In this document: in pieces, positions 49,203 through 49,583 of the stretch
Layout: the number at the start of each line of letters is the position of its first letter
Numbering within the stretch: the first letter of the stretch is position 1
Origin: Eledone cirrhosa
Lineage: Eukaryota
DNA: 64,000 nt
Direction of reading: 5' to 3'
NCBI GenBank assembly: GCA_964016885.1
Contig: OZ024751.1
Coordinates: forward strand, 19,282,001 to 19,346,000
Notes under the pieces: model-generated
Told to the model about the DNA's origin: nothing
Database searches by the model: none
What the model saw: only the letters and a program-made list of their open reading frames with translations
Translations under genes and position numbers: made by a program

Positions 49203-49206
<4 letters not shown>

Positions 49207-49583
49207 CAAGGTTTAGCAAATAAGAAAAAGTTTCAAAATAAATTTCAAAAAATTCACTGTACTCACTATGGTTACCTTTACCGAATCGGTTTCGAGTCTC
49301 AAAAATAAATGGACAGTCCCTGCGGCCTTCCATTTCCACATCATTCATTCTCATCTCGGGAACAATTTTGAATAGCGCCAGTTCGTAATTTGAACTCGGG
49401 AATTTTATATTCTCCGAGTGAAAAGAACCTTCTGACGAGAGTTTATCTTTAAAATGGAAAGCCGCAAGGACTGTCCATTTATTTTTGAGACTCGAAACCG
49501 ATTCGGTAAAGGTAACCATAGTGAGTACAGTGAATTTTTTGAAATTTATTTTGAAACTTTTTCTTATTTGCTAAACCTTGATT
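49203..49583 (+). mobile_element. PLE-type element with ~133-bp inverted arms around a hammerhead
   Basis: 49203-49335 is the reverse complement of 49452-49583 with about 2 mismatches; TA flanks. Confidence 0.85.
49427..49513 (+). ncRNA. Intact type I hammerhead ribozyme with extended stem II
   Basis: ACCTT-CTGACGA-GAGTTT...AAATGGA AAG CC GCAA GG ACTG TCCATTT...AGACTC-GAAA-CCG ATT CGG-TA-AAGGT; canonical G10.1-C11.1, GUA triplet, predicted cut after 49508. Confidence 0.9.

Follow-up and report, generated by a model that had tools for sequence, protein, structure and literature searches.

The locus at positions 49203-49698 of the window, the 64-kb stretch of Eledone cirrhosa DNA analyzed here, is a single, recent and probably dead-end copy of a 486-nt non-coding hammerhead repeat of the non-LTR retrozyme type. 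The repeat has been inserted into a (TA)n microsatellite, and the inverted arm that precedes its ribozyme most likely arose when the enzyme of a Penelope-like element (PLE) primed reverse transcription on both strands of the target. By core and predicted fold, the ribozyme itself (49427-49513) is a real type I hammerhead.

Structure of the locus and its hammerhead

A single insertion, lying within (TA)n, holds both arms and the hammerhead. Its borders are the target microsatellites on the left (49110-49204) and on the right (49699-49753). The inverted arm (minus strand, 49203-49335) is 5ʹ-truncated and consists of unit positions 430-486 followed by 1-74/81, which is termed here the short 3ʹ end. 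The forward arm (plus strand, 49334-49698) consists of non-coding unit positions 312-486 followed by 1-190, the long 3ʹ end. The two arms meet head to head with a 2-nt overlap, or microhomology, at 49334-49335. On the plus strand, the short 3ʹ end site, TGAT/TATATA, recurs at 49580-49589 and is the putative first start of reverse transcription; the ~110 nt that separate the short and long 3ʹ ends (49584-49698, plus strand) make up the tail. The original prediction closed the element at 49583, which was too short, missing the tail: the element runs a further 115 nt, to ~49698.

With their TA flanks, the inverted repeats (49198-49335 and 49452-49589) are 138 nt long and 99% complementary. Of their two mismatches, one is a change from GCAA to GCAG private to the inverted arm, at 49320, and the other a G-to-A change private to the forward arm. 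An arm of ~130 bp antisense to the 3ʹ part of the ribozyme had been predicted and is present, as a 133-bp arm with two mismatches. The inverted arms cover 62 of the 87 ribozyme nucleotides, and the inverted copy (49203-49335) itself lacks CUGACGA and the 5ʹ strand of stem I.

The hammerhead lies on the plus strand, as do all of its parts, and sequence and folding place the predicted cut after 49508 (GTA). Stem I has 5 bp (ACCTT at 49427-49431 with AAGGT at 49509-49513), and the core strands are CTGACGA (49432-49438) and GAAA (49494-49497). The 55-nt stem II (49439-49493), which includes the pair G10.1-C11.1, is composed of a 6-bp proximal stem (49439-49444 with 49488-49493), a pyrimidine-rich internal loop of 7 by 7 nt (49445-49451 and 49481-49487) and a distal stem (49452-49480) that ends in CC-GCAA-GG (49462-49469; GCAA loop at 49464-49467). 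Stem III (49497-49507) is palindromic, with 4 bp and an ATT loop. Adjoining stem I is a purine tract, TGAAAAGA (49419-49426), whose inferred pairing makes it a candidate partner of the stem II internal loop, and a predicted hairpin found throughout the family starts at the cut (49509-49579).

Every position of the hammerhead core (C3-U4-G5-A6-N7-G8-A9, G12-A13-A14-A15 and U16-H17) is accounted for by CTGACGA, GAAA and GTA, and the minimum free energy structure of isolated 49427-49513 is the three-stem hammerhead, at -21.6 kcal/mol. Sequence and fold thus bear out the canonical type I hammerhead with an intact core that had been proposed, and the 55-nt stem II with internal loops and CC-GCAA-GG is present in the forward arm as described. 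Rfam returned no hammerhead match here at the gathering score or at E up to 10, probably because of the long stem II.

The further claim that this is the best candidate for an active ribozyme does not set this locus apart. The core is intact, but hundreds of sister copies share it, and only one complete hammerhead is present at the locus, so the release of a monomer by two cuts is impossible there. A recent preprint takes at least two consecutive complete hammerheads as the mark of an active retrozyme copy (Li, Clavereau and Pollet, bioRxiv 10.64898/2026.07.22.740005, in the portion available); sister loci such as L019 have two.

Within the window, 82 of 141 complex reading frames were scanned, and none gave a Pfam match over the cut-off; no host gene was detected in them, and no PLE-like protein was found adjoining the unit at this locus. 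Other features of the window include a copy of a different repeat at 59540-59670, similar copies of which flank several other loci examined, and a degenerate tandem repeat with units of ~60-100 nt at 60400-61240. Motifs of the form CTGANGA...GAAA occur at 5114, 15189, 28543, 32620 and 1158 on the plus strand and at 28911 and 1151 on the minus strand. These may be minimal hammerheads of other families; those at 1151 and 1158 are paired head to head.

The 486-nt repeat family

A 24-mer of the hammerhead core has 649 exact matches in the genome and none in the control, which shows that the repeat is not a product of chance. When 49336-49583 (248 nt) was used as the query, 2,039 genomic candidates were obtained, and the 40 scored were 98-100% identical over nearly the full length. 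The unit was defined as the 486 nt between two successive cut sites in locus L019. Its longest stop-free frame has 101 codons, and it contains no open reading frame (ORF) with reverse transcriptase (RT) and GIY-YIG domains. Dispersed monomers occur together with tandem copies, each unit with one type I hammerhead, as is characteristic of non-LTR retrozymes.

Two sets of copies were compared. Set A comprises the 30 best BLAST hits. Set B comprises 77 insertions on one chromosome, chosen only by the 24-mer from the first 100 listed of the 649 matches; it leaves out five duplicate loci, three places in set A, and L061. The last of these (G000:C1:214241000-214249000) had been considered as an ORF-bearing copy and was rejected, its two identical-length copies 1,545 bp apart representing a local segmental duplication. 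Elsewhere, the four hammerheads clustered at L149-L152 (G000:C1:30666821-30668001) are family-D-like and lie 485, 335 and 297 nt apart, corresponding to one full and two shortened units.

The family resembles metazoan non-LTR retrozymes, as presented in the available portions of Cervera and de la Pena 2020 (PMC7229834) and the preprint, in that its repeat is non-coding, low in GC and a few hundred bases long, carries a single type I hammerhead in each unit, occurs both as monomers and as partial tandems, and co-exists with PLEs. The unit of 486 nt is within the 51-972 bp of the preprint. The ribozyme differs in its 55-nt stem II, against ~4 bp plus a loop, and in its 4-bp stem III; stem I is predicted to be self-blocked here, whereas in most published circles of animal retrozymes the hammerhead is predicted to stay free.

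Insertion structure and Penelope-like elements

PLE insertions are described as 5ʹ-truncated partial tandems, often with an inverted 5ʹ-truncated copy and a tail, and with a bias toward microsatellites (Craig et al. 2021, PMC8557442, in part). The PLE protein PAc has been shown to cut and extend both strands of AT-rich DNA, and the two internal sites from which it begins reverse transcription delimit the tail (Frangieh et al. 2024, PMC11167929, in part). The 486-nt repeat shares with the EN+ PLEs and pseudo-LTR insertions of these two reports the 5ʹ truncation, the partial tandems, the inverted 5ʹ-truncated copy, the (TA)n target and the two fixed 3ʹ ends bounding a tail, with the hammerhead upstream of both.

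The two-end rule is pronounced. Among the 28 head-to-head insertions in set B, 25 combine one short end (unit 74-81) with one long end (unit 181-197); none has two short or two long ends, and the other three have one atypical end. In set A, 16 of the 30 copies are inverted, 13 of them short plus long. Most set-B copies that have no inverted arm (37 of 49) end at the short site, TGAT/TATATA. The junctions of the 28 inverted insertions are scattered over the whole unit, and 21 of them overlap by 1-7 nt of microhomology. Arms can be as long as 1,156 nt, or more than two units. Arms of the same insertion agree at 506 of 546 diagnostic sites, compared with a mean of 58% and a maximum of 75% in 2,000 shuffles. 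The scattered junctions, the two-end signature of PLEs and the shared variants together give the arms the appearance of products of the insertion event.

The genome contains 10,597 GIY-YIG candidates. All 13 long frames tested match RVT_1 (two of them above the curated cut-off), and 11 of the 13 match GIY-YIG. One locus, L122 (G000:C1:145869000-145878000, minus strand), carries a full PLE of 4,979 bp, arranged pLTR-ORF-pLTR and encoding RT and GIY-YIG, with relatives that are ~97% identical. The hammerhead of its pseudo-LTR is minimal: the core has the U3-A8 variant (TTGAAAA, found in 28 of 30 motifs), stem II is 4 bp long and the minimal stem III is palindromic. Searching for CTGANGA does not detect it. 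Copies of the L122 element end in (TA)n at +82 (5 of 26 rows) or at +148-150 (17 of 26 rows, one of them a duplicate, and with a query that favored this end), and 4 rows continue into the ORF. Two loci of this type have one end of each kind on opposite strands. The two-end rule is therefore common to the 486-nt repeat and to a protein-coding PLE.

Sequence comparison identified no autonomous partner of the unit. No homology of the unit to GIY-YIG loci was found at E 0.01 among 46 loci of the 10,597 candidates, and the best element has only 14 of 15 nt around the cut in common with it (E 1.8). A family-F tandem beside a PLE ORF in L123 was rejected as an autonomous partner, since a (TA)n tract sets it off as an insertion of its own. 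Type I hammerheads of other families, in which stem II has 26-36 nt and stem III is palindromic, occur in the flanks of L006, L007, L015, L049, L127, L130, L132 and L135, some of them beside GIY-YIG frames.

A pathway can be proposed for insertions of this kind. Tandem source copies would be transcribed, the hammerhead would cut at GUA, and the monomers would probably circularize. A PLE protein with RT and GIY-YIG domains would then nick both strands of a (TA)n tract, one cDNA starting at the short site (~74 nt past the cut) and the other at the long site (~186 nt past the cut), and the two truncated cDNAs would be joined head to head through microhomology. In favor of a PLE-type insertion are the repeat unit, its copy number, the (TA)n flanks, the two fixed 3ʹ ends, the scattered junctions, the variants shared between arms and the recurrence of the two-end pattern in a protein-coding PLE of this genome. 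Against it, the unit exceeds the 170-400 nt reported in the available part of PMC7229834, and the tail of ~110 nt compares with 30-40 bp in the EN+ PLEs of PMC8557442 and PMC11167929 (both in part); the repeat also differs from these PLEs in having no ORF.

Conservation of the long stem II

A pattern describing the architecture of this hammerhead has 3,141 matches in the genome and 1 in the control, and the matches fall into some ten families by sequence; where a family includes tandem copies, its unit measures 459-527 nt. Covariation was assessed in 15 hand-picked representatives by pair counts anchored on the core. This approach was used because, with RNAalifold applied to MAFFT alignments, family A was wrongly aligned and the structures emerged only in part.

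In the representatives, stem II is 48-55 nt long. Pairs 1-4 of stem I hold in all 15, with up to four pair types, and the proximal pairs 2-6 of stem II hold in 11-14 of the 15, with different pair types. Stem III changes between C-G and U-A in 4 of 16, and the distal stem changes from U-A to C-G between subfamilies. Three covarying stems, with stem I open-ended, place these ribozymes in type I. The pair 10.1-11.1 is G-C in 9 representatives, A-G in 3, U-U in 2 and U-C in 1; the six that are not G-C are L140, L154, L166, L123, L153 and L156. Three unpaired elements are conserved: UUUC(C) in the 5ʹ strand of the internal loop, UUU in the strand facing it, and a GAAA that precedes the core by ~8-12 nt. 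The long stem II is a trait that the superfamily has inherited and whose structure it has conserved. The GCAA loop does not qualify as a conserved GNRA cap: in set B, 45 of 77 copies have GCAA, 21 GTAT, 4 GTAA and 2 another loop, with 5 not parsed, and related families have a three-base terminal loop. No new type of internal loop appeared among the first 100 of 1,475 matches to a variant pattern, which still admitted UUUCC.

Pairing is conceivable between the purine tract that adjoins stem I and the internal loop of stem II. In 40 of 50 distinct combinations, at least five Watson-Crick pairs are possible between the upstream tract and the 5ʹ strand of the loop, as against 6 of 50 with the 3ʹ strand, although the combinations come from related sequences and so do not form an independent test. 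One switch between families, from GG/CC to UG/CA, looks compensatory. In set B, tract and loop pair perfectly (8 bp) in 23 of 77 hammerheads, and 28 of 77 have an uncompensated mismatch in the middle; the copy in the window would form 5 bp plus one pair.

Hammerheads often have a pseudoknot between stem I and stem II (Perreault et al. 2011, PMC3088659, in part), and the candidate contact resembles such pseudoknots in joining, by Watson-Crick pairs, a strand on the stem I side to an unpaired part of stem II. It differs in that the partner would be an internal loop capped by a further 11-bp helix, with a U-rich strand opposite, and in that the contact would be partly broken in the window copy. 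The minimal hammerheads of PLEs (Cervera and de la Pena 2014, PMC4209133, in part) are likewise of type I, with a palindromic stem III and a helix II that is longer than usual. Here, however, helix II has ~17-20 bp in two parts, compared with 6-8 bp, and stem III has 4 bp, compared with 0-2. This stem III is predicted to be able to dimerize (-14.3 kcal/mol for the self-duplex versus -2.0 for the hairpin). In the covered portions of the literature on hammerheads with an elongated stem II, on pseudoknots that involve internal loops in type I ribozymes, on triple helices, and on octopus or cephalopod hammerheads, no description of this architecture was found; the figures of mussel and other invertebrate hammerheads in the supplement of PMC7229834 may bear on the rarity of the long stem II. 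The longest published helix II encountered in that literature was 6-8 bp (PMC4209133, PMC13725137). The stem II architecture is best regarded as a modest departure from described hammerheads.

A predicted hairpin competing for stem I

A second ACCTT, at 49575-49579, is predicted to close a hairpin of 70 nt whose first base follows the cut and which draws AAGGT away from stem I. The predicted probability of stem I is 0.63-0.86 for 49420-49520 and 0.02 for 49336-49698. In 13 of the 15 representatives, folding gives a hairpin that begins no more than a few bases from the cut and draws in 3-5 bases of stem I. When monomers were folded as circles, stem I had a probability of at most 0.02 in 22 of 23, and the 5ʹ end paired with the foot of the hairpin at 0.47 or more in 11 of 16 family A/B monomers. 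For short constructs, the probability of stem I depends heavily on where the boundaries are set, so that activity is not ranked by folding alone, and nearest-neighbor folding disfavors short hammerhead stems, which leaves the internal hairpin block hypothetical.

One speculative model, which we regard as possible without favoring it, combines these features across the superfamily (more than 3,000 copies in about ten families). The conserved internal loop, with UUUCC opposite C/G-UUUU, would capture the GGAAA(A) tract next to stem I in a pseudoknot or a U-A-U triple helix that takes the place of the usual loop-loop contact, and the 70-nt hairpin would take the 3ʹ strand of stem I. The ribozyme would thus cut during transcription and be locked once circular, with the short start of reverse transcription at the foot of the hairpin. 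In the circles of most animal retrozymes, the hammerhead is predicted to remain free (Cervera and de la Pena, PMC7229834, in part); if the model is true, the hairpin is the self-pairing block that these circles were reported to lack.

Evidence for and against cleavage

The 5ʹ ends of arms bear on whether the hammerhead cuts. Seven of 151 fall in the 5-nt window ending at the predicted cut, compared with 1.55 expected (P=0.001), which makes it the top of 486 windows, and five of the seven are compatible with a start exactly at the cut once microhomology is allowed. This enrichment is indirect evidence of cleavage. A second cluster, nearly equal in size, consists of six arm 5ʹ ends at unit 452-456 (L032, L037, L059, L170, L209 and L213), at the 3ʹ foot of distal stem II; it possibly reflects a stall of the reverse transcriptase or chance extension into AT-rich flanks.

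Most arms (134 of 151) cross at least one intact cut site, which calls for either circles or incomplete cutting and does not distinguish between the two. The same count is in keeping with another reading, in which the repeat is a pseudo-LTR or SINE-like fragment that has become detached and is copied from multimers of linear RNA left uncleaved, with no circle and with the hammerhead as a passenger that rarely cuts. The predicted out-competition of stem I, in 49336-49698 and in the circular monomers, points in this direction as well, as does the use of unprocessed RNA by PAc in vitro (PMC11167929, in part). In that system the hammerhead was dispensable for transposition, and no RNA-seq reads ended at the PAc cut; of nine Xenopus retrozyme dimers, eight showed no cleavage in vitro (Li, Clavereau and Pollet, in part). 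A passenger hammerhead is, however, less easily reconciled with a core and stems that have been kept across diverged families with compensatory changes, or with the enrichment of arm 5ʹ ends at the cut. Arms spanning more than two units also speak against it, though a linear multimer could give the same result. On balance, copying of uncleaved linear RNA is a real but minority possibility.

The inverted arm as a probable insertion footprint

The original prediction saw in the upstream arm a built-in off switch. Its premise, that the arm would sequester the ribozyme in a read-through transcript, is supported thermodynamically: in the predicted folding of the whole fold-back, the pair probabilities of all three stems fall to 0.0, and the arm duplex reaches -217 kcal/mol. 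With 133-bp arms and only two mismatches, complete loss of the hammerhead fold is predicted. Such a duplex, if transcribed, is also a plausible editing substrate.

The idea that the arm evolved as a switch, or that the fold-back is a functional ADAR or Dicer substrate, nevertheless finds little room in the distribution of arms and is very unlikely. An inverted arm is missing from 49 of the 77 set-B insertions, and in the 28 that have one the breakpoints are scattered, only 17 having an antisense arm that extends over the 3ʹ part of the core. A fixed regulatory design would lead to a fixed breakpoint, and copying of one arm to equal ends; neither is observed. The pairing of a short with a long end and the variants common to both arms point instead to insertion chemistry. 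The copy is 98-99% identical to the family and so gives no sign of long retention, and the 82 window frames scanned against Pfam revealed no host gene. Nor is there a scar of editing: rare changes in 81 young arms (of 158) have no sense-strand excess of A-to-G, with 32 A>G versus 50 T>C (p=0.66), and although one of the two arm mismatches at the locus is A>G, this alone means nothing. Three sequencing runs of unrecorded type showed just the repeat family, with nothing bearing on expression or editing. In read-through RNA the inverted arm would be predicted to silence the ribozyme of this copy, though only as a by-product.

Microsatellite DNA rich in AT is unstable and the arms are near-identical, but it is hardly credible that the palindrome formed later, through fold-back or recombination of the DNA within the (TA)n tract. 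Such an origin is largely refuted, since in most inverted insertions each arm has sequence that the other lacks, and one-arm copying cannot produce the different fixed ends seen in 25 of 28 insertions.

Implications

For the locus itself, the outcome is deflationary: the proposed switch is most likely a footprint of insertion, of a kind that about a third of the family carries. The family as a whole provides genomic support for animal retrozymes moved by Penelope-like proteins, and for the origin of PLE inversions in the priming of both strands at two fixed starts, one of each being used in 25 of 28 cases. Both ideas had previously been argued from distribution or from one in vitro system. Rfam does not pick up a long stem II that contains a conserved internal loop, and the number of such ribozymes is therefore probably underestimated. 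Should the docking contact and the hairpin block prove real, they would represent a new tertiary architecture for the hammerhead and would explain how an animal retrozyme circle avoids cutting itself.
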